A DNA stretch of 39,691 nt. Origin: Catajapyx aquilonaris (lineage: Eukaryota). How positions within the stretch are numbered: position 1 is the stretch's first letter; each line of letters begins with the position of its first letter. The stretch is from the NCBI GenBank assembly GCA_000934665.2, contig JYFJ02003629.1, positions 1-39,691 on the forward strand, given 5' to 3'. Positions 1,437 through 39,364 of the stretch are shown here, in pieces. The notes under the pieces were generated by a model, which saw only the letters and a program-made list of their open reading frames with translations, ran no database searches and had not been told where the DNA came from. Made by a program: the position numbers and the translations under genes.

Positions 1437-4400
1437 TCATCGGCGGTCGCGGTAGTGCCGGCTGCGATCACGGTCTCGGCGATCACTGGTCCGGCGCAGG
1501 AACTCATCTACAGACCGCTCGTACTGGAATGAAGTGGTGGCCATGTTTTTTCTGTGTCAGTATCACGCCTAATGATCATAACGACCTTACCTCACTGGTA
1601 CTGACAGATCTCTTATCCGAACGACTGGACCTCGGGTAATCCGGCAATGGAGGTCCGTCGTAATACCTCGGCGGCGGCGGCAAACTATCAAACGGTGGCT
1701 GTAATAAACAGTGCTTGGTAATCAACAATTCCACAATTTTCAAAAGAATAACAAGCCTCTACATACTGGTGGAGGGTATGGCATCGGGCCCAGTGGTGGT
1801 GCCCTGGAGTGAAACTCGTGCAAAAAATCAGAGTAGGTCTGCAAATTCACATGATTAGTAAATTAACGAGGGAGTTGTCAAAATTAATGTTGCAAAAACT
1901 GTTCATACTCCATTGAAAGGACGATCCCTTGGGTACAGTCGTCCTGGTGAGCGATCACGTCGGGTGTCCTTTAGGAAGCCCTTGAACATGTCGAATGCAC
2001 CTAGAAGGAGAGAGATGTAAACTTTTTAAACTCATGAACTACATGGTGATTCAGAGGGTTGTTGCCTTGCCTTCAAAACCACGGCTTCGCTTTCGGGGTG
2101 GTCCATAATCGTCGTCGAGTCGCCTCCGCCTCCTGCCCCTATCAAGTAATTTTAAATTTCCAAGTGGATTGTCATGATTGTTACATGAACGGACACGAAA
2201 TCACAACTTGTCTCCAGTTGTAGTAACGTGCCAAACTGCAGGTGACAGAAACATGCTCTTTGTGTTGCAGTACTTTAACAGGGTGAATGCCCATAATTGG
2301 GGATTTCATACAGTCTTTCTAATTACACTCTCACGTATTATGTCAAAAAAGTTGAGCCAAAACTTATCCTGACCTTGCCTACACAAAAGTGCGCAGGTTT
2401 CTTCCGTCCAACCTTTACTTGCACTGAAATGGTGATAGTTACATAATGACGTGGCACGTTCGTACGAAACATTTTTACACTACACTCGAATAACCTAACG
2501 TGAGTTACACAAGTGTCAGCACTTTAAGAATAAAAGCCTCAACTTACCACTACACAACAATGCAAACAGGAGAGCATTATTAATGCAGCATAATGTCACA
2601 CAAGCGACAATCACAATGCAAAAGTATTTAAACACCATCTATATATCCTAGCGAATCCTAACAAATTCATCGAGATTTCCAGCACAAGCAACATGTTTCT
2701 ATCGCACACCTGCAGCATACAGCAACATACGTACTTCAACTTGAAACGGATTCACATAACATACTGGGTGCTTGACCATGATGGAGCAACAACTGGTTCA
2801 CCTGTACTCAAAATGCGAATAGAGCAGGCGTGCAATCTACAGTGCAAGGGTGTCTACTCCACGATTGCATAGGAAGCAAGGTGGGAAGTTCAACAACTAA
2901 TCACATAAAAGAGATTGCCAACATTTTCACTATGCGATGAGCGCTTTTGCAGTTACCCTCTTCTGCTGCAATCTTGGGCTAGACGATGCCTTTCAACAAG
3001 TTCAAGCAGTGGGAGTGTACCCATACGTAGGACCACCGTTCAATTTCATCACATCGTACAGGCAGTTTTTTTTTACAGGAAATGTTTTGAAACTCTCTTC
3101 ACACCCTAAAGGCCCTTGCGAAAATGCTAGAAACTTATGGAATTTTGTGCGGATTAACTGATTTCGCTGCCCCATACAAAACATTTCTTGAACAAAACAG
3201 TCACTTGCTCAGTCATTAGAATGGTCAGTGGCACATACGGAAAATATGTCTCTCTGTATGCAGCTCTTTTAATTACTCCACTTCAAGAAGATCAATAACT
3301 CGGGATCAATAAATATTTTTACCATTAAATAGAAGGAATGCTAGCAAATAAAATATGGAATCAGTAGAACAAATCTCAAGTTCCAAGAGCGAAATAGATA
3401 CCTACAAACACCGTACTTTATTTGCTAGTATTATTTCTACGCAAGCAATTCCGCACGTCTGACTAACCACACTCGCACACCTCCTACATCGTGATAAAAA
3501 TACACATTAATTTGCAAATATTCCTATCACAATGCAGGAAGAATGTTTGCACACATGAAGAGACAAGCGATGCTTAAATTACTTAGGATTCAAAAGGACA
3601 CGTAATGCAGATATTATTACCTCATGTCCTGCAGATTGTGTCTCAACTTAAACAAAAATTCGTCGTTCCACGACTCTGTGTACCTGGGATTGAAAACATT
3701 GCATTAATTCTCTCTTCCATCGGAACTGTGACTAACCCCTTTTTTTTTTACAAAAAAATAACTTCTGATTCTTAACTAATGTACAGCTAGCTTAAGCACT
3801 ACCTGCATAAAACCTGTTAGTCTCTTACGGATATAAAGTTGTACATCTAAGTGTATTTTTAAGCACTCGTGGAATGCCCAATTCTACAACTTCCAGTGAT
3901 GCAATTTTTCTCACTCCTTTTCACTGTTTCCGGAGATGATTATTAGATTCTGCATAATGTCATGCGATTAGGAAGCAACAAAATATCTTTTTGTTTGACC
4001 TTCTGGCTTTGAATTGACATGCGTTAAGCTCTGCATGTTTTCCATAATCACCCGGTTGTAGAATTAGTTTTCTCGTATTATCGAAATTCCTTAAATTTTT
4101 ACAACTTGATGTTCTTCCGCTCCTGATGATCCCACTCTTTAATCAATGCCCTTTGACGCAGCAACTACGCCAAGAAGCACTAATTGATAACAATGAGCTT
4201 CAGGAGTGAAGGAACATCATTACGTAAAATTACTTTACGGCTCAACTATAAATACCATATCATTACCATTCTAATTAAAAATTTCGTATGTCAAATATGT
4301 CCAAATCAATCCAAGAATTTACATCTCACATTCCTTTCAGAAATTTTTATAGACTTATGTCGCTAATAACACCTACCACAATGTGTTAGGCTTCCAAATA

Positions 4401-7400
4401 TAGACTCTTTTTTTTTCACCTTCCATTATTAAATTTTTTTTTTTTGAGAAAAGAAAGCATGATCAGTGCAACCTACCGTGACCCCACAGACGACCCCATG
4501 TTTTCACACAGCTGCAGGTCAGAGCACGGATGGTGCATCTGCCACACAACACAACACTCACAGAACCACTTCTTTTTTCTTTTCTTTTTTAAAAATGTCT
4601 CTTTCTCTCTCTCCCCCTCTAAAAACAGTCCCCTATTTCTTTTATATGCTTCGGGCCATAACTTGGTACCACCCCTCGGAGAGTTCCATATTTCAACAAA
4701 AAAAGAAAATAAATCTTGTGTGTCCCCCTGGCGAGTGGCGAACAGTTCCACTAATCTACTTATTCATAGGGTAGTCCCCAAATGTCCAGAGTTCCGGTCA
4801 ACTGAAAATGTGACCCAAAAAAAACAACATAATTCAACCGACCACTCACCAAGGGGGGAGGGGAACTTCACTTATTCTCGGAAAATGCGCACCACTGTTT
4901 TTTAAACCACTTATTCGGCGATCAAGGTCCCGAGTCCTCATATTTTCTTTCGCCAAAGAAAAAACTCTTTATGTAAAGAGTGATGGGATTCTAGGAGAAG
5001 GGTATTTTTTTTTTTCAGGTGATCCATGGTGCGAAAAACAGACACTTGTGTGTTCGTAAACAACAATGGAGTCCTGTGTACCTCCCAGAATCGTGCAACC
5101 GGCCTGGAAACGCAGAGCTACGTGGCTGCTGCTGCTGCATCTGGAGCGAGGAGTGTGACGGAGGACTCATGCGACCACTGCCTCCTCCGCTCCCACTTCC
5201 GCCTCCACCGCCTCCTCCTCGGCGGCCGCTTCCTCCGCTGCTGCGTGACCCGCTGCCTCCATTTCCAACATTGCCTCGGGGACGAACAGCACGCGAGGCC
5301 TCCTTGGACTTGCGAAGTATTGGGGTCATCTCGATGCCTTCATCCAGCGGAAACAGGCGGCACAGTTCCTCAGCCACGCGGGGCTCTATCTCCTGAAAAA
5401 TCAACATGTCACAATGTTGCAAAATCACAATAAACAACATCAAACAATAGATATCGATTAACATTTCCCCCTAAAGGCTCCACAAACATAATTTTGTTTT
5501 AAAATAATATTGATTATAAACATGTAAAACATACAAAAGCCATTACTTTACAATCGCAAGTCAAGCAGCTCATTTTATTACCACGATAGAAAAAAAGTTA
5601 TTTCTAAAATTCCACCCTTTATTATTTTTAACTGGTTGCTACACTGAACATTCTTTGCAAACAGTACATTATGTAACAGTGTGTATGAAAATTCACAGGC
5701 AATGTTTTCGATTGGAATGACATGCAGAAAGCAATGTTGATCTTACCTGTCCGTCTCGACCGATTTTGACAGGCTTCCCTTCGTTCCAGGGATTGTACAA
5801 ATGTTGCGTTTTAGTGAATGGCAGTTCCTTCCTGAAATGAAAAAAAAAAAAAGTCCTTCGTGGTAACACGTATCCTAAGTGTTGTCACTGGTGATCTTAC
5901 CTGCATATCCAGTCTAATCGGAACACTCCTCCCAAAGCCTTGGCCGACAGCCCAGGAGGAAGGACCCATGAAATTGGTGGGCCATCTCGGCGGGACTCAC
6001 TGCCCAGGCGACAAAACCCTGCAAATACAGGCAGTGTTACATGTAATTATAACTTCAAGCTATGATCCTCCGAATGGAAATAAAAAGTACGCAGTTCGCA
6101 CCTGCAAATTTTCCGCTCTCCTTCACTGAGAAGATCAGCATGACATTTCTCGACTCTCGATAAGCTTGGTTCAGTTTGGCCTCATTTTGCGGCGGAGTGG
6201 ACCAAACCCCTTTGGCTTTGGACAAAGCTACGTTCTCTGCATTGTTGCTCTTCATCAGAAAGAAGCGGGCGTCACGGAACAAATAGTTCAACTTCGTTAT
6301 GAAATCTGATGACAAAGGACCAATTAGTCAACTTGAATACGGCAACAAAAGTGTTTCGAAACATACCATAAGACTTGCCCTTTCGCCCGGCCTTCCCATG
6401 CTTCGGGCTTTGGCCTGCAGGTGAAAACAAACAAATCAGTTACACTAAGCAAACTAGCCTAACTACAATTATAATGGAACACAAAAATGTAGTCCGGTTG
6501 TCAATTATATTTTTCAAAGGATTCCTGCAAGAAGATGCTTTACCTCACATTCTTTTTAATATTTTCATGCCATATCTTAATTATCTAGCAAGAGTGGATG
6601 ACCTTCGAAAATAACACTTACCGGGGCTTGCTGTGCGGATTTCAGGTGACTCCGAACGCCTGCGCTTTCCACTCGATTCATCTGTAAATTAATACAAACA
6701 AACTTGTGAGTACAGCCACTTTCGACTAAAGAATGATGATAATGCGGTGTAAACTATAACATATCAACAAATAGAGGCATCAATCACATAACTATTGCAA
6801 GTCCAGCACATCCGTACCTGAATCAGAGGATGCAGAGCTCATGCTGGGGTCACTCGATCCCGAGTCGTCGTCACTCGAAGAGGAGCTAACCTCACTCCTG
6901 GTGTCATACTCGGGCATCTCCTCGTCCTTGAAGTCATCACCAGTCACTTCAGACTTCACCGAGTCTCCACTTCCACCCCTGTCCGCACCACCTTCCGGCT
7001 TCTCCTCCGCAGCTGTAATCAAAGAGTACCTCATAAATTCCTTTCTGTACACTCCGCACGTTTTATCACAATTCATGCACGAACCCAGTTTCTAAGAAAT
7101 AATAAATCTACCATGAAAGTTTAAAGCCCCACTCTAGTAAGCAAACGACCAAATTAAACGGCCACCGTATCCCAACATTTAGAGATAATACAAGGAATGT
7201 ACCCACAAGGATTCCGAGCATCAAAAAAAAAAAGCTACAGACAGTGTTTCACAACGACTAATGCTAAAACACCAACAAATCCAGCTTAAGTAATTGTAAA
7301 CAAGACACATTTCACACAGAAGCAGTGAAAACAATCACATCCATATTGCACAATTGTCATAAAAAGTACTACAATGCTGCATGTATTTGACATATTTCAA

Positions 7401-9125
7401 CATTATAAGTTCTGTGACATTGTCCTCAGGTAATTTTTATTAATAATTAATGCACGTTTCTATTAATCTTTTGCAATACTTGAACAAACGGGACAAAACC
7501 GAGGCTCGCTTTTTCATATATTAATAGATCTACCGCAAAAAAAAATGTCGCAGTTCACGGCAGAAATCGCACCCTTCGAAATACCGCCACAAACAGAAAA
7601 ATCAGTGTCCATGACATTATAATAACGCATTTTAATGAAAGATTTCATTACGACTTGAAATAATATAAACAGCAACCCAAAACTTGACACAAAACGGAAA
7701 CCAGCCCACCATAAAATAATGGAGAAAATTAACATTCCCAGGGAGCTGATAATTAAAAGAGCAAAAAGGAGGTTAGCGTCAAGCATAAAAAGGCAGCTTA
7801 TTTTCTGCGCAGTAGTTGTTTTCTTTACATTTTTTAAAAAAAGGGGGAGTTAATGACTGACTACTGTCGTCTACCTCCACTCCCTTGATCTTCCTTTGAA
7901 GTTACGTCTGATTTCTCCTCTTTCAACTCAGCCTTACTTTCTTCACTGCTCGTCTTACTCTTCTTCACCGATTCCTTCACTGACTTTGCTTTTCCAGTTT
8001 CGACCGACTTCTTCACTTTTTCTGTCAGGACAAACATTTTCCACATGTGCATAAAACACATAGGTGCAACGACTAGTTTATAAAAGAGGAATTACTAACC
8101 AGTCTTTTCCACCTCCTTGGTCTGTGGAGTTGCCTTGTGGTCGGCGGCTTTTGAAGTAACTTTCTTTCCTGACGATGTCCTCTTAGCAGCAGTCTAAATT
8201 GTATGGAAAATTATTACAATGTTGTCATTGCAATGTTACCTCGGCAAGTCTGGATTTTATGCATCAGATTTTTCCATGTCACTTACCTTAGGTTTTTCCT
8301 CCGTGTTCTCTTTCTTAGCTGCAGTTTCACTCGTAGCTTTTCCTGCAGACTTCCGAGTGACTCGCCTTTCCGGCTGGACCTCCGTCGCTGTTTGAGATTT
8401 GGTCCTCGCCTTCCGTACAGACTTCCGCTGCAAATATCGTGACACATAATGATTTTGCTAATTAAGAAATCGTTAAATACTTACCGGAGACCGCTTCGGC
8501 GTCACCTTCTTCGCAGCCTTCTTGGGTTCATCTGCTTTGTCAGAACTTGTCGGCGACTTCTTCAGGTCTGTCAAAGAATAATATACTACTCGTACTATAA
8601 CAATTACAGTCGAACGCTTCATGTACGAGAAAGCAGCCAAATTAAAAGTGCACACAAATAAATTCATAGCAATATTTTTGTTCTGACTCATTACATCACG
8701 TATAAAATTATGAACCATTTTGGTGCAAATCACTGTACCTGTACTTATAAGTAATTTGCATGAAATGTCGTGAAACGTACAATGATGTCATTTGTTTTAA
8801 AAAAGCTCACCCTTCAGTTCTTCGGACAGTTCGTCAAACACTTCTGATGAGTTCTCCAATATCTCATCCAAGAGGTTCACCTCCGTGTCCCCTAGAACGC
8901 AACGAACAGAAAAATTAGAATATAAAAAACTCATCGCTCTTGTTCTTATACGCTCAGAATAATTGCGACGCTAATAATTTCTTGAGATCAACGCCATTTG
9001 ACCTAAGAAAGGTCATTCCTCCAAAACTCTTCGAACAAAATGTTGACCATTTAAAAAGGGGGGGAAAAAAAGAAGAACCCTTTTGATTTTTTACCCTTGG
9101 TCTCTGGATTGTCCCCTTCGCTCAT
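1437..9125 (-). CDS. YTHDC1: YTH domain-containing protein 1 (YT521-B), nuclear m6A reader; 18 coding exons, about 674 aa
   Basis: Exons 9125-9095, 8891-8811, 8567-8485, 8427-8287, 8193-8100, 8021-7875, 7012-6818, 6681-6622, 6414-6367, 6305-6102, 6018-5901, 5831-5747, 5392-5082, 2138-2071, 2000-1909, 1838-1767, 1698-1591 and 1523-1437 join in frame (2025 nt). YTH domain: [25 protein letters not shown]...[17 protein letters not shown]...WVLPPG...[25 protein letters not shown]1-type motifs are also present: [24 protein letters not shown] and C-terminal SVDEFLRRT followed by an RD-rich tail. Confidence 0.95.
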
Positions 9126-9822
9126 CCTGGGCGCATCAGACCCCCAGCAGATCTTTACAACAAAAAAACCTTCCTCCAACTGGACCAACTGGTCTAGAAT
9201 CCTCCGCACAAAAAGAACGGACGGAAAAATGCTCAAAACGTAGATAGAAAATGGCAAAATAAATTCCACGGCACAAAATGTAAGATGGCGAACCAAGGTC
9301 AAGGACCATGGCATAAGAAAGCAGCTGAGGAGGGGGCGGAGGGGGGGTAAATGTAAAAGAGAGAGAGAAAAGGAAAGATTGTAGCTTATTAATACATGAA
9401 AACAATAAATTAGTTTAAAATAATAAATAAATAATTTAGATTATTCGGAGAAGTGGAGAAAACAAAGATGGCGGATGACATGCATCGCCTCTAGCGGCCA
9501 GTATGCGCAAGTTGAATTTTATTCAAATTCTGGCGGGAGCTGTTGAGAATTTTTAATTTTAATAATTTTAAATTAACAAGCTCAATTTTTAAAAAAAAAA
9601 TGGTACCGCTGCTTTTTGTCACGTCCAGGACATGATGGTGCATACTGGGAATTTCAGACGAAATTGTGCAATTATTATTTAAGACAATATTCGCAATGCC
9701 TACTTTTTTTTTTGCAAAAACACGTGCAATGTACATAAGAGATAATGGGAAGAAGCCATTGCTAATTAGTCCAACAATCAGTTTTTAAAATGCCCAGAAA
9801 ACGATAATGTTACTGTATAATC

Positions 9823-9893: not shown

Positions 9894-11130
9894 GATATTA
9901 GGAGGTTGGCACAGCATTGCCTTTCAACCTCCAAGGACAGGGAAGAAAGGAAGCGGCTGTGGCCTATTATATATGGAAACAACACCGGATCCCTGATCTA
10001 GCAACAATCAGTATTTTAATCTGCATTTGCATAGATTGTCAAGCAGCAGATATGGTAATGTTACCGTTGGTTCGTGGGAGTGGGTTAGGTTCAAATAATC
10101 TTGGTGCGTGGCCAGGCGTGGCTGCTACTGTATAAGTGAAGTTAGTTGTAATCTAGTGTATTTACAAATGTTTTCCCATAATCGTTAAAGTACAATGTTA
10201 ATTACTTGTATTACCCTAGCCTATACATACAAATTCCAATCAGTTACGCGTTGTCTCTACACCAGCCTGGGAAAGTGCCAGCCTCGCGGGTTAAATACGA
10301 GCAGTTACATGCGAATTACGAGTCCAGTATATAAGAGCGTGATAAGAGTAACTTCTTGACAGGACAAGAGAGTTCCTGGGCGCGGGCTAGGACTCGCAAT
10401 TCGCATGTAACTGCTCGTACTTGCATCGCTATTGCACAAAGTCAACTTGTTTTGCCCAATGTGGCAATATTTATGCACGTGTAACTCATTAAGATAGGGA
10501 TTGCAAAATCCCCTTGCAACAGTAATGACCAAAGTAATGACGTTCCCACAAATTGATCAGAAATATTGACAATATTTCTTTACTGAACTTAAAAGACGAA
10601 TACAGTGTCGCGTCAAGGAGGTATGAACTTGTGATGGCCAGTAATATTTATATTGAACATGGAAAATATCCTGCAACACTACTGCAAAAATCTAGAAGCC
10701 CACCACAACGTCTGCATGAAAGTCTCGTATACGCATTTTTAATGTTGCGGAACTGGTTTTCCAGACACTGTGTGATAAACGCATGGGTTATTATAATATA
10801 TAAAGCAGACTCTGGATTTATGCAAAATTACATGCTGCCATAATTTGCACCTCCACAATGAAGAATGATCGGCTTACGTAATGGGGGGAAAACCAGTGTG
10901 TCCCTCCCCCCCACCACCACCATACCCCGCCCTTCCAAATAATTCTGCGAACAAGCCCTGCACTTGACTCTTGATGTACGCAGTAATAACTCTGCGCGAA
11001 ATATTTCCGGTGGCGGGGTATTACAGAGGTTGACGTCTAGGAATTTTTCATGGGCGAGGTTTCTCGATGCCAGTCACCTTTTGCAGAAGGTCAAAAGCTG
11101 CGGAACTAGTTTACTCTTATCAAGCTCGAG

Positions 11131-11138
11131 TATATAAA
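11131..11138 (+). promoter_or_regulatory. TATA box of the first CS-alpha-beta gene
   Basis: TATATAAA about 80 nt upstream of the ATG at 11213. Confidence 0.55.
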
Positions 11139-11212
11139 GGATCGGAAGATGTGGGTACGAGGCTTCAGATGCACATAGGGACCTTAAGCGTGTTATATAG
11201 TGGTCGAAAAAT

Positions 11213-12525
11213 ATGTGGACTCTGCTTATTCTCACTGTTATGGGTAAGTTAATACTTATTTCATCTCTACGTTGCGACTTAATTTGTATTATTTATTACA
11301 CTTTTATTTTGTGCCATACCTGTCATTAATATTGCTACTCTGTTGGACCATAATAATTTGGCAATGAATTTTCGCCAATAGAAGCAATAATATTAGCCTT
11401 ATTACTATACATTACTGATTACATTCATTATTTGATTTTACTGGTAAGTGAAAATGCAAAAAAAACTTTTATGTCAATATTGTATAACTTTGTTGTGCCA
11501 AAATAATTTGGCAGTGAATTTTAGACCACTAGAAAACAGTAATAAGCAATTGGTGGTACTCATTCATTAGGCTACTGATTTTATGCAGATAACGTGCAAA
11601 TGACCTTTATTTATGTTTGTCATCAGTTGCGTCATGTACCGGCGCTCCAGCCAACGATTCCTCATTGGAACTGTTGCCATTGAACATCAAATGCTCCATG
11701 TTGGTCTACACTCCTGAGGCCAACAGAAACAACAGCTGTTACGTCAACTGCGTCCTCTTCAACAAGGATGGTGGCTACTGCGACCAGGAGGACAACTGCA
11801 TGTGCTACATGGGCACACCGAACAGCAGAGTGACCATCGTGTCTCCTACGCCACCTAAATGCTCGGACATGGACAGTACGTACATCAAGGACGAGGAGTT
11901 GAACTGCTACATGGCCTGTGCAGTGTCAGGGTACTACGGTGGTACCTGCATGGAAGACTTTTGTCTCTGTTTGGAGAACCGGAAGCCTGATATGAAGATT
12001 GACCTTCGTGGTGTTGACCAGTGCAGCCAGCTACAGGAGGTGCATCGGAAGGCTTGTGGGTACAAATGTACGGCGGAGAAACACGTCGGAGGGTACTGCG
12101 AGGACATCGATGGACAATGTCAGTGTTTGTCATTGTCGATTAACCAACAAGTCAAGCATGGTGACCGGATTGGACTTGTGACCTCTGAAGGTGTTGAGAA
12201 GAAGGTGGAGGTCACCCAGCTGCTTCAGGCAAGTCGGAAGACATACTGCTCGTCTCTTCGAGCCATTACCAAGACCCAGAGCAAGAAAGGTCTGTGCTCA
12301 ATGTTCTGCTCAAAGTACAACTTTCACGGTGGGTTTTGCGGAGTACAAGACGAGTGTCTCTGTGTCAAGCATGTCAAAGGTCTTGACGAATTGGGTGTCC
12401 GGATTGAGGATCTGACCACCACCACAGAAGGGTATGACGAAACCTCGACATATGCTCCAGAGTATGACTATTGGGCCACTGAAGATGACCAAGTGCCCAC
12501 AACAATTGCTTCAATTGCTGAGTAG
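11213..12525 (+). CDS. Secreted protein with four tandem CS-alpha-beta (defensin/scorpion-toxin-like) domains and a Thr/acidic tail, about 309 aa
   Basis: Exon 1 11213-11243 (MWTLLILTVM, donor G|gtaagt) plus exon 2 11627-12525 gives the signal peptide MWTLLILTVMVASCTG. It is followed by four C-x10-15-C-x3-C-x9-C-x4-6-C-x-C units, each with GG[YTF]C. AATAAA lies at about 12568. Confidence 0.85.
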
Positions 12526-13754
12526 AGATATAAATAATTGTTGTATTGAAAATAACATTTTCGCAAAAATAAAATCGGTGCCATAACACAGTAACCCACA
12601 ATAAAACCAGCTGGCAGCACAAAAATGCTATTATTATTTTTTAGAATATGTGCGATTGTAACATAATTATGTTATGACAGATTTTTTTTAAAGATGGTCA
12701 AAAATACCAGATTCAAACACTGTACAGTACATTTTACAATTAAACTTTATTAAAAGTACGGTACTTGTCTGCCAAAATGTAAAAATAATATAAACTTGTA
12801 TAATAATTATAAGCGACATTTTCAGTACATATTTTTGATTAATGAACAAGGCGGACACATTTAAAAAAATGGTTTACAAGATACAAACACTGCTCATTCT
12901 CAAATGAAAAAATTAAAACTTGCCGTGTCAGCCAAACTGTAAAAATAATATAAGACGTCGTTTTATACTGTATATTTTTGATTAATATTCATACATGGTA
13001 ACGCACTTACTTTTTCTAATTATCAAGTTATTGTCGCAGGCTTTTCCTATAAATCACTAATTGAATTTATTTGGCCAAAAACACTGGCAGGGATACATTA
13101 TTTTATGACAAACCTGATGAGAACGACTCCATGTCCCAATCCCACGTAGGAAAATCCATGATAATTATTTCGCTTCTTCCTCGAAAATCAATGCAATTAG
13201 CGCGTGATTAAATAGCACTTTTTTCCAAGTCCTTTCGAAACACCAAACACTACTTATGATACAAAGTATAAGCCACTTGGTGCCACCGACACAACTCGGA
13301 ACACTAGCCAGCAGAGTCTTGTAATACCAACGCTATATTTTGTCGTACACAGTAGGCTACAATATTCATGAGTTGAAAACAAAGCGATGTCATCAGATCG
13401 ATCGGGGATAAAAAGTTTGATCAGCAATTTTGTGATGCTTATTTTCAGCCCCATCTGCATGTCAACCTGTCAACAATGGATCGATGTTTTTTTTTTAAAA
13501 AAATAATGTAAAATACAACAACAAGCAACGTTATTCTCGTAATGAAATGGTGGCGTATTTTTTCCCCAAAAGGTGACTAACGAAGGACCATGACCTGTAC
13601 CTTGAAAAATATTTTTTCCAACGGTAGTGGATGACCCATATTGATAGTCACTTATAGCCATTGGGTAAAACGGAAGTTGCAGGTACCGTTGCATGGGTTT
13701 AAATACTGTATAGTAGATTTTTGGGGGCATTACTTGACTTCGAAAGCTCCAAAA

Positions 13755-14481
13755 ATGTATCTTAAACTCTCAACGCTGTTGCTGCTCGTCGGAGTTGTCG
13801 CAGGTACGTACTTTTTTATTATTTAATAATGATTCATACATAATATCCTTCAATATCTTGGGAGAAAAAATTATCATATGCCTAATTGTTCTGCATGTGC
13901 ATACTCTAGTATGGTGCCAAACATCGGACTATACCAGTACGACGGAGATACCAGACACCGAGACGACCACAATGATTCAGGAACAACGAGAACCTGACAT
14001 TGAAGTACGTGAGATCATACCTTGCCGACCCGAAATCCGGGTCAATTGCATGTACAAGTGCAGGGAGAAAGGACTGGATTACGCTACTTGCAGCGACGAC
14101 AATGATTGCTCTTGTTACCAGAAGCCATCTAGACCACAAGGTTAGTCCATACAGTCGTGAAAATGAGTAAGGTAGTAGACCTGAGTCACCTGACGCTCAA
14201 ATTAGCCTCCAAGAGAGGACCGAGTGCGCACCCACATGAAGCTGCGCGAATGTGGGTGCGCACTCGGTCCTCTCTTGGATGCTAATTTGAGCTCCTTTCC
14301 GGCCAATGTACGTACTTCCATATATATTATTACTGACAGCATTTTGTATGTTGTAGTTGCAGGAAAGGACCCGGTTTCACGAACATTGCTGTGTTTCCCT
14401 AGCCTCTGCTTCGAGTTCTGCCGGATCACCGGATACTGGGCCGGATTCTGCCAGGGACCCACCAGCTGCATGTGTTTTTAA
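13755..14481 (+). CDS. Secreted protein with a Thr/Glu-rich pro-region and two CS-alpha-beta domains, about 132 aa
   Basis: Exons 13755-13803 (MYLKLSTLLLLVGVVA), 13910-14140 and 14363-14481 (alternative acceptor 6 nt upstream), joined by phase-1 introns. Domains: CRPEIRVNCMYKCREKGLDYATCSDDNDCSC and CFPSLCFEFCRITGYWAGFCQGPTSCMC. Confidence 0.8.
14195..14292. repeat. 98-nt near-perfect hairpin (43-bp arms, 12-nt loop) in an intron; probable tiny MITE
   Basis: 14195-14237 is the reverse complement of 14250-14292 with a single mismatch. Confidence 0.85.
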
Positions 14482-15595
14482 CTGCAACTTAAAATGACAC
14501 TACCGTCGTGTTCATCATCGTCAACATGACATTATATGACTCTGTGTACCGGTAATAAGTTAATTTATTGCGCCAATAAAGACAACTCTCGTAATAGGCT
14601 ACATCACCAGTCTTATTGTCATCTAATTATTAATAGGCTACCCAACTGTCATGGAAACTCCTGCCGCACCGTACGGCCTACAGCTTTGGGAGTGGTGTCA
14701 AAATTTTTCTCGGATTTTCTATATTTGCAAACCAATTTGTTTGTTTGGGAAATAATGCCATTGGAATTTATAAAGCGCAAAAAAACGCAAAAAAAACGCG
14801 CAAAGTCGCAGTTCCACGGAATTCCCATTTCCGCCGCGCAGGGCGCCACCTGTTTGGTCGGAACCGGTCGCGACTTTCTTACTTCCGCACTTATTTACCG
14901 TCGTATGTCGCTGCGATGCTGCTACCATGGTAACCACTTTTGCCAAATTTTGGCAACCGGTGATTAGTTTGACTTCTAACTTTGAAGAAGCCCTGTATTG
15001 ATCGTATATAAATATTATTTTTTCAACCCGTTCCAACCTGTCCCTTTAAAAAACTTTAAAAAAAAACAAAAACCCAAAAAAACGCGGCCATATTGGGCGC
15101 CAACAAGTACTTGACCAAGCCGCCGCCAGATGGCTCACCCTCCTCTATAACTGCTCTAATTGTAAACGAACAAAGTTTTTAAACAAAAATAATATTACCC
15201 AACTTTAACGCACCAAATATTAAGCCCGTAAATTCGCAATTGAATAATCTGACAATTAAATCGAGTTCGTGTGTGTGTGTCACGATTCCACCGCCATCTG
15301 TCGTGTGAAAAGGGCGGCGTCTCACCCACTCTCGTTGAGAAGAAAAGATTGTTCCGATTTTTTCCTTCTCGAAATTTCGTCTCTTTTTCCTTTCGAATTC
15401 AAGAGGGTTTCCAGCCGTGTCCTCCTCCTTCACCCTCCACTCCCTTCAGACCCTTTGCTTCAGCCTGGAGATTCAGCCCCCCCGGTAGCCCCCGTTGAGA
15501 GAGACTCAGGAACTCGCTTGGGGGAAGGGGCGTCCCCGTCCGTCTCGTCATGTTCCACTAAACGTCAATCGAACGCGTAAGGTTTTTATCCGCTC

Positions 15596-16610: not shown

Positions 16611-16742
16611 TGGAAATGGCAGTTTACACAATATTGTTCAGTTAAAGAAGTTGGGGCGTGATTGGCAGCTGTTTGTAATTTTGCAATGATCTGTTTCAGA
16701 TTTTTCGGCTGAAATTTTGGTTGCTGTGCCAGATTATCAACA

Positions 16743-19700
16743 ATGGTGGGTGAAGTGAACGGCTGCGGCGAGGATGACATCTCGCTGTACATGGAGTGTG
16801 TGGACGAGGATCCGGAGCCGTGCCAGATGGCGGTGTACGAGCGGCTCGTGAAGGAGAAGGAGGCCTTCCAGGCGCAGCTGGAACTGTTGCGGAAGAATGG
16901 GGCGGAGATACTGGGGAAGGCCCTGCAGGGTCCGCGGCCCGTTCAGGTGATCCAGGCGCAGGGAGCCGCTCCGGTCAAGACGACGCAGATCAGGCCGCCC
17001 ATTCCGGTTGCTCCGGTGCCGCAGGGCGTGAGGCAACTGGTGCCGCTTCCGAAAGGGGCCGCGGGTCAGATTATAGTGCAGGGAGCTCCTGCGGGTGGCG
17101 GACAGTACCAGCTGCTGATGGACCCTAACCTGGGCCTGGTTGTGGGAACATTGCCGCCCAACAATGCGGCCGGCACACAAGGTTCGTATGGTTGACACCC
17201 GAGTGGAGCATTTGACGAACTTAATTTATTTACAGTGCTGACAAGAGCACCGTTTACAACAACAGCACCGTTTACAACAACAGCACCGTTTACAACAACA
17301 GCACCGCCTATTGTAAGTATGAACTTAACTAGAATGGAGTTAATTACTGTAATGGCTTAATTATAGGTGCCAGCCAATGCTGTTGCGACTCAGCTACGGC
17401 CGTTGAATCCTGTGGCGCAACCTGTACGACCTGTTTCAATCGTAAGCACTAGTACACGTACTGCTTCGACTGTCAGTACCGGTGCATCATCTGCTCCAGT
17501 GATTAGTGCTGGTATGTATACCGGTAACACATTTTAAAGCAACATTCCGCGTTGACGTTACGATTTGTTTCAGTACCAAGTGCGAATCTGCTTCAAATAC
17601 AACCCAAGGCGCCTTCAGTGTTGATGGTGCCGCAGAAGCAAAGTCTTCTTAAGGCTGCAACACCCGCAGCTTCTGCAGCACCAAATGCAGCACCGCAACG
17701 TGGCATTAAGGACGTACCAGTTGTCGATCTGACGAAAGGAGAAGATCAAGTCGTGGAGGGTGATCCCAAAGTGATAACCACTTTCCGATCTGAAACCGGA
17801 CAAGGAAAGACCTTTCCATCGCTCGTCGTGATGGTACGCCCCTGTCTACATGATAAAATGCCGAAGGGATTTGCTAATGCCGAGCGAGCAAAACTAGGTA
17901 TTGTACTTCACCAAGGGTTCGATATAGTTTTGTAACCTTGTATTGCGTTCGCAGATGTGAAGATAAAGAACGTACTGGTGTACACACCGACCCGATTCAC
18001 CGAGTGGTTGCTTCAGCAAGGAATGGTACGGAGCGAGCAGAAATGCAAGTATCACGTGACGCCTCAGCTATCTCAGATCAACTTTAAGCTTGGGATGTAC
18101 TCGGATGGTAGCCATTTTCCGTACAGCGGCGGCTACGTTTGGATAAGCGAATGCTGCCCGAACCGCCTGGTCTCTGTTTTTAACGGATCCATATTTGAAG
18201 GAGCGCCTCATCCGCCCACGATCCTTCTGAAGCTGATGTACCATTGGGCATGCCAGACGAATGTCCAGAATGTGATTCAGTGGGTCAAAGTGGATAACTA
18301 CTACGTGAAGAACTTTTTCGCGTACATGCGCAGCGCTTGCGTGTCGGCCATACACCAGAAGTTTGGAAAGATGGGAAAGCCTGGAAAGTTTGTGGAAGTT
18401 GGAGTGATTAGCCTTGGAACAACGTCGCAGGATGGAAAACAGCGGCAGGTGAAGGTTGAGGTTCTGGGTGCGTTGGACGTGGAGAATAAGTGGATCCGGT
18501 TGAGAGCTGTCGAGCCGCCTCAGGATTCGGAACGGAACAGCAAGAAGCGGTTCATGAAGATTCTGTCGCCGCTGGAAAACTGGATCGAGAAAAGCAGCGT
18601 TATCGTTACCGACTTCACGATCGATAAGGAAACATTGCATCAGTTGGGATACGCAAACGTCATCCAGAGCTCATCTGGACAGAACATGACTGCACCGCAC
18701 AACAACACTCACATCATGGACTACTTGCGGAAGGTTATTCCAAAAATGTTTCAGGTAATGATGCGGTATTAACGAGTAAGAATAATTGTATGCTCATTTG
18801 CCATTTATATCTTTCAGAACACTCTGTCGCTGCTGACTCGCAACCTGATTCAGCAGTTTTTGGATGAGCTGGTGTGGCGTGAAAGATGGGGCATCGTGGC
18901 GTCCGCTGCGTTTGATAACCTGATAGAGCATATGGCTGATCAAACGAGAGCTGAAAAAGGTGCGTACCGATACGCTCGGTAGAGTCGCAGAGATTCGACT
19001 TAATCTGTCATTTGCAGTCGACACGTTCATCAATCGGCTGAACAAGATTGCGCTCAACCCGTTTCAAGACTGGAGCTATCAGATCCCCGGGAGGGAATCT
19101 GTGAGGCTCGTAATCAGCGGTTCAAATGCGACTCGGCAAATTCAGCCTGGAAATCAGGTGGTGCCTGTGATGCCGAGAAGCTCGATTGATATGCTGCCAG
19201 CGAGTATCCGCGATGTTCAGGTATGCCATACAAATGCGTTTGAATCTATGGAAGTTAATGTGTTGCATTTGTTAGCCGAGACATCCTCCTCTGGCAAGAG
19301 CGGCTGTAAAGCGAGCGTCTCCATCTGATGGCGGCAGTGCTAGTAAAATGATTCGTAAAGAAGACATGCAATCTCTTGAAGCTTACTATTACGGAACGAT
19401 GCCAGGGAATTCCGATCGTGACCTCACCCATCTCAATATTACTCACAAGGTACGACAACTCGTTACTTTTACGAAGCAATGAAATTAACCGAAATTTAAT
19501 TGCAGTGTCCCATTTGCGCCCACCACATGGCGACCAATTTGGAAGTTGTGAAGCACATGATGCTTCACGTCGACCCTTCTTTAAGCGGAGGTGCATTACC
19601 TGCTGCGCCGGTGCAATGCAAATATTGTATGAAGGATATGAGAACTGAAAGCACATTGAATCTTCATGTGGAAGCTGTACGTCGATGAGATCATACCATC

Positions 19701-21553
19701 TTTCCAAATGTTTACTGACCAAATATTTTCAGGCCCATGTTTGCTCCAAAATGACCCACATTTGTCGGATCTGCGATGAGGTTTTCCTGAAGCCCGACAT
19801 GCTCATTAACCACATGCATAAGAACCATGTCGGAAAGGAGATGCCGTATGTATGCGGTGGGTGTGGCTTCCGTGCCTCTTTCCGTCACACATTGGTCGAT
19901 CATTTCTGGGAAAAGCATGAAGGCACGGACGTGGCTCTATGCCCGTATTGCTTGAGGACATTGTGCATTAAGGCGAACCAGAACATCCCGCACTTGTTGC
20001 GCCATTTGCAGGTAAATACTTGGTAAATTCTGCCAGGATTTGGTTGCAAATATTGTCGTTTTACAGCGACATCTGGGCAAATCTGCGAAGCCGAGGTGCA
20101 GATTATGCACCCTCGTCTTCCTGACCGATGGGCACCTGAAGCAGCACAGTGCCCGTGCACATGCCTCGTTCCAAGATCATCTAGGTATGTTACTTTGACC
20201 AGCAACTTGCATGGAGTTGCTCAATTTGCGTCTTGCAGGTGTTTCGCCTCTGAAGGTCCCAGGCTCAAAAGATGACCAGCTTATGCCTCCGCCGCCTCCG
20301 ATCCAAGCTGCACGTATGCATCCAGGTCCGAGGGTCAAACCACCATTCTCCACGTCCCATAATTCCGAACTGGTGTTCTACAGTGTTGAGAAGGATGTCA
20401 ACAAGTGTTACGAGTGCAGCAGATTCATGAGCGATGCAGGACACTACACGTAAGTCACTGCATTACAGTTCGTTACAGACTGTGTCTGACAACAATTGCG
20501 TCCACAGGTCTTACTACTGCTGCGAAAAGTGCCGCTACTCGACTTGCTGCAGGCAGGGAATTGTTAGCCACGTAAAGAACTTTCATTCAAACCGCAAGTC
20601 GACCTTCAAATTGGGACGCTCGACTACGTTGCCTCAGATAATGAAGTGCGCTTGCGGCGAGAATTTCAGCACTGGAAATTCACTAGGTACTTACTTCCTT
20701 ACGTTTACATGAGAGCGATTCACTCAGCGATGCATCCAATTGCGTGGGGCGAAAGTAATGAGTACGTTTCGCTCCCAAACGATTGATTTCATTGCTGATC
20801 AAATCACTCACATGTATTCCTGGCCTAAATCAGTTTTTTTTTCTGATATATGGAATTTCGCGTTTGTTACATACTATTGTTCATTCGTAGCTAAGCATTT
20901 AGTTGAATGCGGATACACCATTGCGTATCCAACGGGGATACCTGTACCGATGGATGCGGACAGCTATCCGTCAGCTTCCTTCCCGCCACTGGTTGATTTG
21001 GACGATCAGACTGAAAAGGATCCGAGCGAAGAGTTGCTGAAGGCGTACGCTAAGAAGGACAACAGCGGTTCGAACAACAAAAAAGAATCGCAGCAACAAT
21101 CAAACGTGAAAGGTATGGAGCGCAACGGAGGATAAAATAGCAGGGGAATTCTTCATGGCCGTGAAATTAATACGGAGATTGGCCAAACGCTGAGTGTTTT
21201 GTTGACCGTTTGCTGTCTTTGCAGATGGGGAATTTCCCAGCATGCTGAATGTGCTGGGGTTGGTACGGAAGTCGACTGAAGATGCTGGGGAAGACGGACC
21301 GGCTTCGACCAGCAAGGAAGCTGGATCGGCTGAAGAAAGTGCTGAATCTTCCGCAGAAGCGAAAACAAGTGCAGATGAAGGGAAAACCGGTGCAGATGGA
21401 GAGAAAACCGGTGCGGATGGAGAGAGAACCGGTGCGGATGGAGAGAAAACCGGTGCTGATGCAGAGAAAGCTGGTGAAGGGAAAACTGGTGTGGCTGAAG
21501 AGAAAACTGGTGCGGCTGAGGAAGCGGACAAAGGCCCGCAAGCATCGGAATAG
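16743..21553 (+). CDS. POGZ: POGZ/ZNF280/Row-family zinc-finger protein containing an internal Merlin/ISXO2-like transposase-derived domain; 15 coding exons, about 1270 aa
   Basis: Exons 16743-17181, 17236-17312, 17367-17511, 17574-17897, 17955-18754, 18818-18959, 19018-19220, 19276-19449, 19506-19676, 19733-20011, 20067-20184, 20239-20449, 20508-20686, 20891-21112 and 21225-21553 join in frame (3813 nt). Family signatures: LYMECVDEDPEPCQ (cf. POGZ LFMECEEEELEPWQ), YYYG, EMPYVC..C.FRAS, LCPYCL, an HPZ-like CYEC...CEKCRYSTCC...SH..NFH, and GNSLAKHLV. A probable non-coding first exon ends at the donor near 15577. Confidence 0.85.
20697..20826. mobile_element. Degenerate MITE (same family as 21948, 22014, 31718 and 32940) in a POGZ-like intron
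   Basis: Imperfect inverted arms tttacatgagagcgatt...aatcactcacatgta are shared with the other copies. Confidence 0.55.
21361..21530 (+). repeat. Coding 21-bp minisatellite encoding (KTGADGE)-like heptapeptides
   Basis: About 7-8 degenerate copies of aaaaccggtgc(a/g)gatggagag in the last exon. Confidence 0.85.
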
Positions 21554-21947
21554 TCCATCGCCAGATATTTCGCAATCATCCAGCAGATTCCTGGCATTGA
21601 GAGATCTATGCTACAAACTAACAATCTTTTGTCTATATCAGTATTCAGTCGAATATTAGGAAACAATTATTAGTGTGTAGCATAGATGCAGTCAATGCCA
21701 GGAACTTGCTGGATGTTTGGACCACATTTTATTCTGGACCTAGTGCGATTAGGATATGATGCAATTCAATTCATTAGCTGGAGCACAAAATGTTGCCGGA
21801 ACAATTTTTGATATAAGGTATGATAGTGGAAGAAATCTCGGCTGTAAATGTCTTGAGAGTTGCATGGTGCCAGTTACGATCCAAGTAATTGAGGGGCTTT
21901 GAATTGTTGCTGAAGGCTCTTGCTAGATCATTCCTTGAACAGTATTA

Positions 21948-38653: not shown

Positions 38654-38723
38654 CGACCTTTGACCTGTCGGATAACCATCGCTGATTCACAGTTTGTTTG
38701 ATAAACTCGAGAGTATATAAAAG
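38654..38723 (+). promoter_or_regulatory. Proximal promoter of the dawdle-like gene: DR1 nuclear-receptor-like element and TATA box
   Basis: CGACCTTTGACCT (reverse complement AGGTCA-A-AGGTCG) at 38654-38666 and TATATAAAAG at 38714-38723. The ATG is at 38760. Confidence 0.5.
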
Positions 38724-38759
38724 CACAGCGTGGTCTTCATTAAGCCGGCTGTGATAATC

Positions 38760-39321
38760 ATGAATCCTCGTGTAGTGTGCGCGCTTGTCATCCTACTAGT
38801 GGTGTTGCTAGAGTCGACAACCAGCTCGCCAGTGGATCGAGACATGGCCAGAAGAACCAACCGTCACAATATGAGGCACCAGAACAGTCGTCACAAGACG
38901 AGGAGGATTCACCATGATGGTGCTGTTGGCGCACCGGACCCGGACATATGGGACAGCACCCAAGAGAACCGAAGACCAGGCGCTGAAGACGACCCTGAAC
39001 CGACGCTCTCAAGACGACGAACATTCGTGGACGAACCATCGGAAGAAGAAGAAACACCGGAAGACATAGTGTCCATTCCATGTCCCAAGTGCAAAGAGAG
39101 TGACGAGGAGCTGAGGCAACTGAGGATCGACATGATCAAAGAGCAGATACTGATGAAGCTGAGGATGAAGGAGCCACCAAACGCGACACTGACGCCATCG
39201 TCTTTGCCTCTGCCTCTCTTCAAAGGCAGCATCCTTCCAAGAGGAGGAGAAACCCTGGAGAACAAGGATTCAGATGACTTCTACGGAAAGACAGAGCAGG
39301 TCATCGTCTTTCCTGAAGATA
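38760..39321 (+). CDS. daw: Exon 1 of an activin-branch TGF-beta ligand precursor, most like dawdle (gene continues beyond the window)
   Basis: Signal peptide MNPRVVCALVILLVVLLESTTS, then CPKC...LRIDMIKEQILMKLRMKEPP...LPLPLFKG...NKDSDDFYGKTEQVIVFP. This matches the dawdle prodomain pattern (CPKC, LRIE.VK.QIL.KLRL, LP.PIF.G, DD.Y) better than myoglianin. Phase-1 donor A|gtaagt at 39321/39322. Confidence 0.75.
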
Positions 39322-39364
39322 GTAAGTTCATTGAACCTTGAATTTGGAAAGGGGGGTGGAAGTC

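Follow-up and report, generated by a model that had tools for sequence, protein, structure and literature searches.

The window analysed here, i.e., the whole stretch of 39.7 kb, carries on its plus strand a gene, denoted gene A, whose product is a predicted secreted protein of 309 amino acids encoded by two coding exons. The coding part of exon 1 (11213..11243, 31 nt) starts with the ATG at 11213 and comprises ten signal-peptide codons and one further nucleotide, which places the following intron (11244..11626, 383 nt, GT..AG) in phase 1. The coding part of exon 2 (11627..12525) is an open frame whose stop codon ends at 12525. In this order, it encodes the end of the signal peptide, a short pro-segment, four CS-alpha-beta domains with their linkers, and an acidic tail. 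Residues 1-16 constitute the only hydrophobic stretch found in a scan of the whole protein, and since this stretch is N-terminal, the product is predicted to be secreted rather than anchored. Upstream, a TATA-like box (11131..11138, plus strand), about 30 nt ahead of an initiator-like TCAGA near 11165, was read from the sequence as part of a putative promoter.

Transcript evidence comes from one public run (X1) of unrecorded type, which is stored as contigs with a depth of 4-9 and holds part of the region. Its first contig begins at 11208, such that the transcript does not fix the start site, lacks precisely the 383 nt of the predicted intron, and ends at 12229. The second one covers 12213-12620 and overlaps the first by 17 nt, so that the four units do not lie together on any single contig. 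It extends to the end of the 3' UTR (12526..12620, plus strand), where AATAAA occurs at 12568 and 12600. Together, the two contigs cover exon 2 (11627-12620) gap-free and reveal no joint inside it. Most simply, the spliced contig represents the mRNA of gene A; a less likely alternative is its derivation from a retrocopy. Between the contigs and the genome there are six differences. Four of them lie in the coding sequence, and none of the four changes an amino acid (P about 0.006 for substitutions of these types), which suggests real alleles maintained by purifying selection. Gene A is a real arthropod gene, spliced and constrained. The original prediction of a signal exon followed by a phase-1 intron was borne out, as a spliced contig that includes the signal exon and skips exactly this intron is present, and so was the placement of all four domains on one exon.

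The sequence GGGAAAACC at 10886 corresponds to the Dorsal zen motif (PMC3239199), but the pattern was chosen post hoc and has 24 matches in the window. The stricter kappaB form GGGRWWWYCC matches seven times in the window, with no match near gene A. For these reasons, we rejected kappaB sites as evidence of immune control.

The surroundings of gene A are composed of ordinary neighbours: a YTH-domain gene (4900-9450, minus strand), a zinc-finger gene (16700-21700, plus), which we take to be POGZ-like, MFAP1 (24800-26310, plus), a DnaJ-domain gene (30780-31750, plus), and a coiled-coil gene (33200-34400, minus). The first exon of a secreted precursor (38720-39340, plus) has no Pfam match and is presumably TGF-beta-like. 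A further contig of run X1, 313 nt in length, maps to 13002-13314 (minus) in the spacer between gene A and its downstream neighbour gene B, with zero differences from the genome.

The best named matches of the window's MFAP1 are termite, cockroach, and stick-insect proteins with 76-77% identity, and no lepidopteran protein is among the named ones in the best 120 of 905 matches. The genome contains 107 gustatory-receptor (7tm_7) matches, many of them tandemly clustered. A true odorant receptor was not found in the genome, the single 7tm_6 match being one of the gustatory-receptor loci. Odorant receptors are a mark of winged insects and of the wingless groups nearest to them. We take the host of gene A to be a non-lepidopteran, probably primitively wingless arthropod.

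Pattern and fold of the four domains

Of the 25 cysteines of the gene A product, one belongs to the signal peptide, and each of the four domains has six. Members of the CS-alpha-beta (cis-defensin) superfamily pair their disulfides 1-4, 2-5, and 3-6. All four units reveal the CS-alpha-beta pattern C...C-x3-C...G-x-C...C-x-C, with spacings of 14-3-9-5-1, 14-3-9-4-1, 10-3-9-6-1, and 15-3-9-5-1, and all four carry the gamma-core GG[YTF]C. On a recount of the exon-2 protein, coordinates, spacings, and gamma-cores agree with what had been proposed from the sequence. A short pro-segment of about 15 residues separates the signal peptide from Cys33, where domain 1 begins (Cys33-Cys70, 11692..11805, plus strand; net charge -3, with an N-glycosylation sequon at Asn45). 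It is followed by domain 2 (Cys89-Cys125, 11860..11970, plus; net -6), domain 3 (Cys143-Cys177, 12022..12126, plus; net -1), and domain 4 (Cys218-Cys256, 12247..12363, plus; net +3), which has the dipeptide RK two residues upstream of its first cysteine. The linkers measure 17-40 amino acids. The chain ends in a tail of 53 residues rich in Thr, Glu, Asp, and Tyr (12364..12522, plus; net -10), and as a whole it has a net charge of -14 and a pI of 4.85. The expected charge profile, acidic to neutral in domains 1-3 and basic in domain 4, is the one observed. Outside the cysteines, the units are just 11-29% identical to each other.

When the exon-2 protein was shuffled 100,000 times, three or more motifs occurred in none of the shuffles, two motifs in 2, and one motif in 950. 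A six-frame scan of the 39.7-kb window with the same motif returned six occurrences, all of them on the plus strand between 11.7 and 14.5 kb.

Against the Pfam model Defensin_2 (cut-off 20.4 bits), the whole protein scores 24.1 bits and unit 1 scores 23.7 bits. Units 2 and 3 stay below the cut-off and unit 4 has no Defensin_2 match; in units 2-4, defensin or thionin Pfam matches are all sub-threshold. A profile of the four units compared with the PDB gave 24 matches at E<=10, nearly all of which are CS-alpha-beta proteins. Insect defensins identified by name, or mutants of them, make up seven of the top ten, and 6px8, a fly-venom peptide on a defensin scaffold, ranks first. For domain 2, AlphaFold2 with a 10-row alignment of genomic units predicted one helix and two strands at a pLDDT of 85.8. 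With this model, Foldseek probabilities reach 1.00, with no match at E<=0.001, and VIA gave Z up to 4.1 with an rmsd of 1.5 over 33 residues. Domain 2 is the only unit for which a confident model was obtained; a single-sequence prediction of the whole exon-2 protein reached a pLDDT of 34. The CS-alpha-beta assignment made in the original prediction is supported by all four patterns, the Defensin_2 score, the PDB profile matches, and the domain 2 model. Pfam and per-domain structure prediction had both been suggested as checks on it: the former scores above cut-off for the whole protein and unit 1 but not for units 2-4, the latter yields a confident defensin fold for domain 2 and no confident model for the others.

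The domain 2 model resembles scorpion short toxins, insect defensins, and plant defensins alike, with FS50 and LURE among the fold matches, and the modelled fold does not discriminate function. The option of an ion-channel toxin, which had been offered alongside defensins, is disfavoured. Scorpion potassium-channel toxins carry a pore-blocking Lys immediately before Cys4, where the gene A units have Y, T, Y, and F, respectively. Moreover, the N-terminal loops of gene A are long, while such toxins have no long flexible N-loop (PMC5506212).

Relatives, origin and precedents

Besides the sources discussed individually, the literature drawn on includes PMC10051947, PMC10506718, PMC13555911, and bioRxiv 10.1101/2022.10.13.512120.

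No close homologue of the whole gene A protein was found among 180 word-search candidates at E<=0.01. The four-unit profile compared with longer proteins scored none of eight candidates, which is weak evidence, and the ESM Atlas gave no usable match for the whole protein or for residues 72-170. A second copy of the whole protein in the genome was not detected either: two candidates were scored and the one match was gene A itself. A phmmer search of 1.84 billion proteins returned three matches. Two of these, a VCBS-repeat protein and a chitin-binding repeat protein, were discarded as repeat or composition artefacts. The one meaningful match (E 3e-6) is XP_026745889.1 of Trichoplusia ni, a protein of 285 residues with five CS-alpha-beta units and the database name 'tenascin-like', which from its unit pattern appears to be X-tox-like.

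This match might suggest that gene A is a distant true orthologue of X-tox or nasonin-2, i.e., an ancient multi-domain defensin gene kept in scattered hexapods, the more so since unit 3 shares a run of eight residues with the last unit of the moth protein. However, the alignments are just 22-28% identical with sliding registers, loop length, charge, and exon structure differ, and the match was picked out of 1.84 billion proteins precisely for this kind of likeness. We regard orthology as highly improbable.

The multi-domain layout as such is already known, from lepidopteran X-tox and from nasonin-2 and nasonin-6 of a wasp; what is unusual in gene A is its charge and its gene structure. The view that the fold is normally single-domain had overlooked both groups, and because of these precedents the layout is less surprising than it had seemed. 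X-tox proteins consist of 3-11 CS-alpha-beta units with non-conserved spacers (PMC2728511), with an exon of its own for every unit (PMC4558851, which cites d'Alencon 2013). The unit consensus is C-x4-C-x3-C-x7-G-x-C-x3-K/R-C-x-C and cationic (PMC2728511). X-tox expression in haemocytes is induced by infection. Gene A shares with X-tox proteins such as Spod-11-tox and Gall-6-tox a signal peptide followed by imperfect tandem CS-alpha-beta units with the core C-x3-C-x7-G-x-C. In contrast to X-tox, its N-loops have 14, 14, 10, and 15 residues instead of 4, K/R before Cys5 is missing, three of its four units are acidic, an acidic tail is present, and all units reside in one exon rather than in one exon each. 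The units of gene A are far more diverged from each other (11-29%) than four of the five T. ni units (71-100%). Finally, X-tox is restricted to Lepidoptera, to which the host of gene A does not belong.

Nasonin-2 and nasonin-6 of Nasonia vitripennis have 4-5 units per chain and are devoid of processing signals (PMC2853521). Nasonin-6 has one unit per exon, while for nasonin-2 intron loss after exon duplication was proposed (PMC2853521). Nasonin-2 is induced by infection (PMC3873987). Like them, gene A has four units in one secreted chain and a phase-1 intron after the signal peptide. The hymenopteran nasonins have a short N-loop and no propeptide (PMC2853521), whereas in gene A the loops are long and both a short pro-segment and an acidic tail are present. 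No sequence match to nasonins was found in our homologue searches. Gene A belongs to neither X-tox nor nasonins, from which it differs by loops, charge, tail, and host, and in the case of X-tox also by exons.

The individual units also resemble classical insect defensins, which are antimicrobial (PF01097; sapecin 1L4V, phormicin 1ICA, lucifensin 2LLD, coprisin 2LN4). They have in common the six-cysteine spacing, the long N-loop, the GGxC gamma-core, and the predicted fold, and insect defensins are the best PDB sequence matches of the unit profile. Classical insect defensins, however, have a single cationic domain and a propeptide with a dibasic site, whereas gene A has four, mostly anionic units and a dibasic site of this maturation type at unit 4 only. 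Two-unit defensins occur in other kingdoms, i.e., the plant protein MtDef5, which is highly cationic with a 7-aa linker (PMC5700942), and Bizyarsin of a fungus (PMC5234102); they share with gene A the presence of more than one CS-alpha-beta unit, but have only two. Five springtails surveyed for defensins reportedly have single-domain ones only, 63-72 residues in length. Antibacterial activity has been reported for anionic defensins. A multi-unit defensin from a wingless arthropod was not found in our literature search on defensins, with subscription papers mostly outside its reach.

As to the origin of the four units, all of them open with C-S-x-[L/M], and their N-loops of 10-15 residues compare to 4-9 residues in ten other units examined from the same genome and to 4 in the five moth units. 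Aligned with each other, the gene A units score 58 on average, compared with 28 against other genomic units and 38 against the moth units. Length accounts for part of this advantage, and the pairing of unit 3 with moth unit 5 reaches 69, which equals the best pair within the gene. Internal duplication of one long-loop ancestor appears the best reading of these patterns. Because of the low identity outside the cysteines and the decay of DNA repeats within exon 2, of which exact-seeded ones do not exceed 13 nt, the duplication is considered old.

Processing and possible function

The original prediction had left the choice between a polyprotein cleaved into four peptides and a multivalent secreted effector, and had pointed to basic sites in the linkers (ENRK, EKK, SRK). 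Gene A has five dibasic sites, all of them RK or KK, but R-x-x-R is absent, and units 3 and 4 themselves contain two of the five. Linker 1 is devoid of a dibasic site, in linker 2 RK is followed by Pro, and unit 1 is preceded by a single Lys. Proline at P1' blocks dibasic cleavage. No conserved cleavage motif was found across the linkers of gene A. Release of all four units, each as a peptide with a target of its own, would be in line with their strong divergence, with the length of the linkers, and with the single Lys or Arg in every linker. We nevertheless consider such a polyprotein quite unlikely, because linker 1 provides no dibasic site, linker 2 provides RK-Pro, and the analogue Spod-11-tox is secreted and not processed into defensins (PMC2728511). 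Hence, the multivalent secreted effector is the better of the two options.

RK214-215, two residues before the first cysteine of unit 4, is the only canonical-looking defensin maturation site in gene A. It gives rise to an alternative in which domain 4 is the sole active, cationic peptide, inactivated or carried by the acidic domains 1-3 and the tail until it is released by cleavage at RK214-215 and removal of the tail. Such a latent defensin would agree with the position of RK ahead of the only basic unit, with the dibasic motif at which insect defensin propeptides end (PMC5506212), and with the anionic C-terminal extension of mytilin, which was proposed to neutralise the cationic peptide (PMC7168163). 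On the other hand, there is no dibasic site C-terminal to domain 4, a KK lies within its own N-loop, it has a net charge of no more than +3, and preserving three intact disulfide frameworks just to form a carrier would be uneconomical. This alternative appears rather unlikely to us.

The reading that we favour, at about even confidence, is that gene A encodes a multivalent immune protein that is secreted, remains largely uncleaved, and evolved independently. A single long-loop domain of the insect defensin type would have been tandemly duplicated within the gene, apart from X-tox and nasonins, resulting in a secreted 24-cysteine protein of the beads-on-a-string type. After removal of the signal peptide, we infer, the chain stays whole or largely so; at most, the basic domain 4 might be clipped at RK214-215, in which case the acidic tail would remain attached and mask the charge of the domain. 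The four different surfaces may grip microbial envelope ligands or basic host proteins by multivalent binding in humoral or epithelial immunity. The protein would thus act by binding and not by membrane-attack killing; membrane-directed killing is unlikely because three of the four units are acidic and the overall net charge is -14, with the antibacterial anionic defensins mentioned above as counterexamples. An immune role is suggested by analogy with nasonin-2 and with Spod-11-tox, which is infection-induced and lacks antimicrobial activity (PMC2728511). The same source weakens the case for microbe binding by gene A, since Spod-11-tox bound neither E. coli nor yeast (PMC2728511).

A non-immune secretion of the reproductive tract, the cuticle or a glue, or a salivary or defensive gland could account for a multivalent chain as well, e.g., as a multi-headed protease inhibitor or a receptor ligand, with the acidic tail and its tyrosines docking onto a basic exosite. 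The CS-alpha-beta fold also serves protease inhibitors, channel ligands, and signalling ligands (PMC2853521; fold matches FS50 and LURE), the tail tyrosines have acidic neighbours, and a convincing kappaB site upstream of gene A is absent. Yet the homologue searches linked gene A to no protein of these kinds by sequence, composition is the only hint of tyrosine sulfation and O-glycosylation, and the toxin hallmarks are absent. We consider this alternative unlikely.

Gene A would be an independent case of the layout, based on another defensin subtype, opposite in charge and with its four units strongly diverged, and would indicate that this layout evolves repeatedly. With its four domains, singly or together, it offers a natural comparison for a class (X-tox, nasonin-2 and nasonin-6) of which X-tox no longer acts as an antimicrobial.

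Gene B and further defensin-like units in the genome

About 1.2 kb downstream of gene A lies a two-motif neighbour, gene B (13755..14481, plus strand), which the original prediction had overlooked. It is predicted to encode 132 amino acids in an open spliced frame of three exons: a signal exon (13755-13803), an exon with an acidic Thr-rich pro-segment and unit B1 (13910-14140), and an exon with unit B2 (14363-14481), which scores 20.1 bits on Defensin_2, just under the cut-off. Both introns are in phase 1. The splicing is a prediction, as run X1 has no contig cover of gene B, which speaks neither for nor against the gene. AATAAA occurs only downstream of B2, at 14575. We rejected B2 as a separate gene: a donor-like site at 14308 joined to the acceptor at 14363 gives a stop, and no signal exon is evident. 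The second intron contains a 43-bp inverted repeat (14195-14292; 98% complementary, 12-nt loop), which is part of a dispersed repeat; genome-wide, this repeat has 27 matches.

Gene B is a probable two-domain paralog; its units and those of gene A show no close similarity. As an adjacent paralog with one exon per domain, it illustrates how defensin rosaries may be built.

Beyond the window, a census of the genome with three Pfam models and motif scans, plus one unit found by eye, counted no fewer than nine additional units, distributed over contigs C206, C522, C3054, and C1958; this number is a lower bound. Not in a single case were several units found in one open frame. Two of the further units have Thr-rich tails.

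On contig C1958, at about 12.2-14.1 kb (plus strand; L043 about 4180-6090), three defensin-like exons with sub-threshold Gamma-thionin matches flank Ig exons encoding two C2-set domains of 33.7 and 21.8 bits (cut-off 21), and the splice borders look compatible. The order of exons possibly corresponds to a predicted mosaic protein of the form defensin-defensin-Ig-Ig-defensin, which may be a more surprising lead than gene A itself. The opposite strand of C1958 carries one more defensin-like exon, the fourth, as well as additional Ig-like ones.

Gene A, gene B, and the C1958 mosaic together allow the tentative idea that, in this lineage of wingless arthropods, the defensin fold was turned into a general, shuffled extracellular binding module. 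If true, gene A would be a member of an undescribed defensin-based recognition or adhesion system, and the lineage would represent a third independent origin of defensin rosaries in the insect line, seen at different stages (exon-per-unit versus single exon).

The remaining units are single-domain. Contig C206 contains, at about 38.5-40.5 kb (L007), three clustered single-domain defensin genes with short N-loops, one of which scores 38.1 bits on Defensin_2. On C3054 (L010 about 1100-1945) and C522 (L003 about 1315-1695), single units are followed by Thr- or Ser/Gly-rich low-complexity tails.
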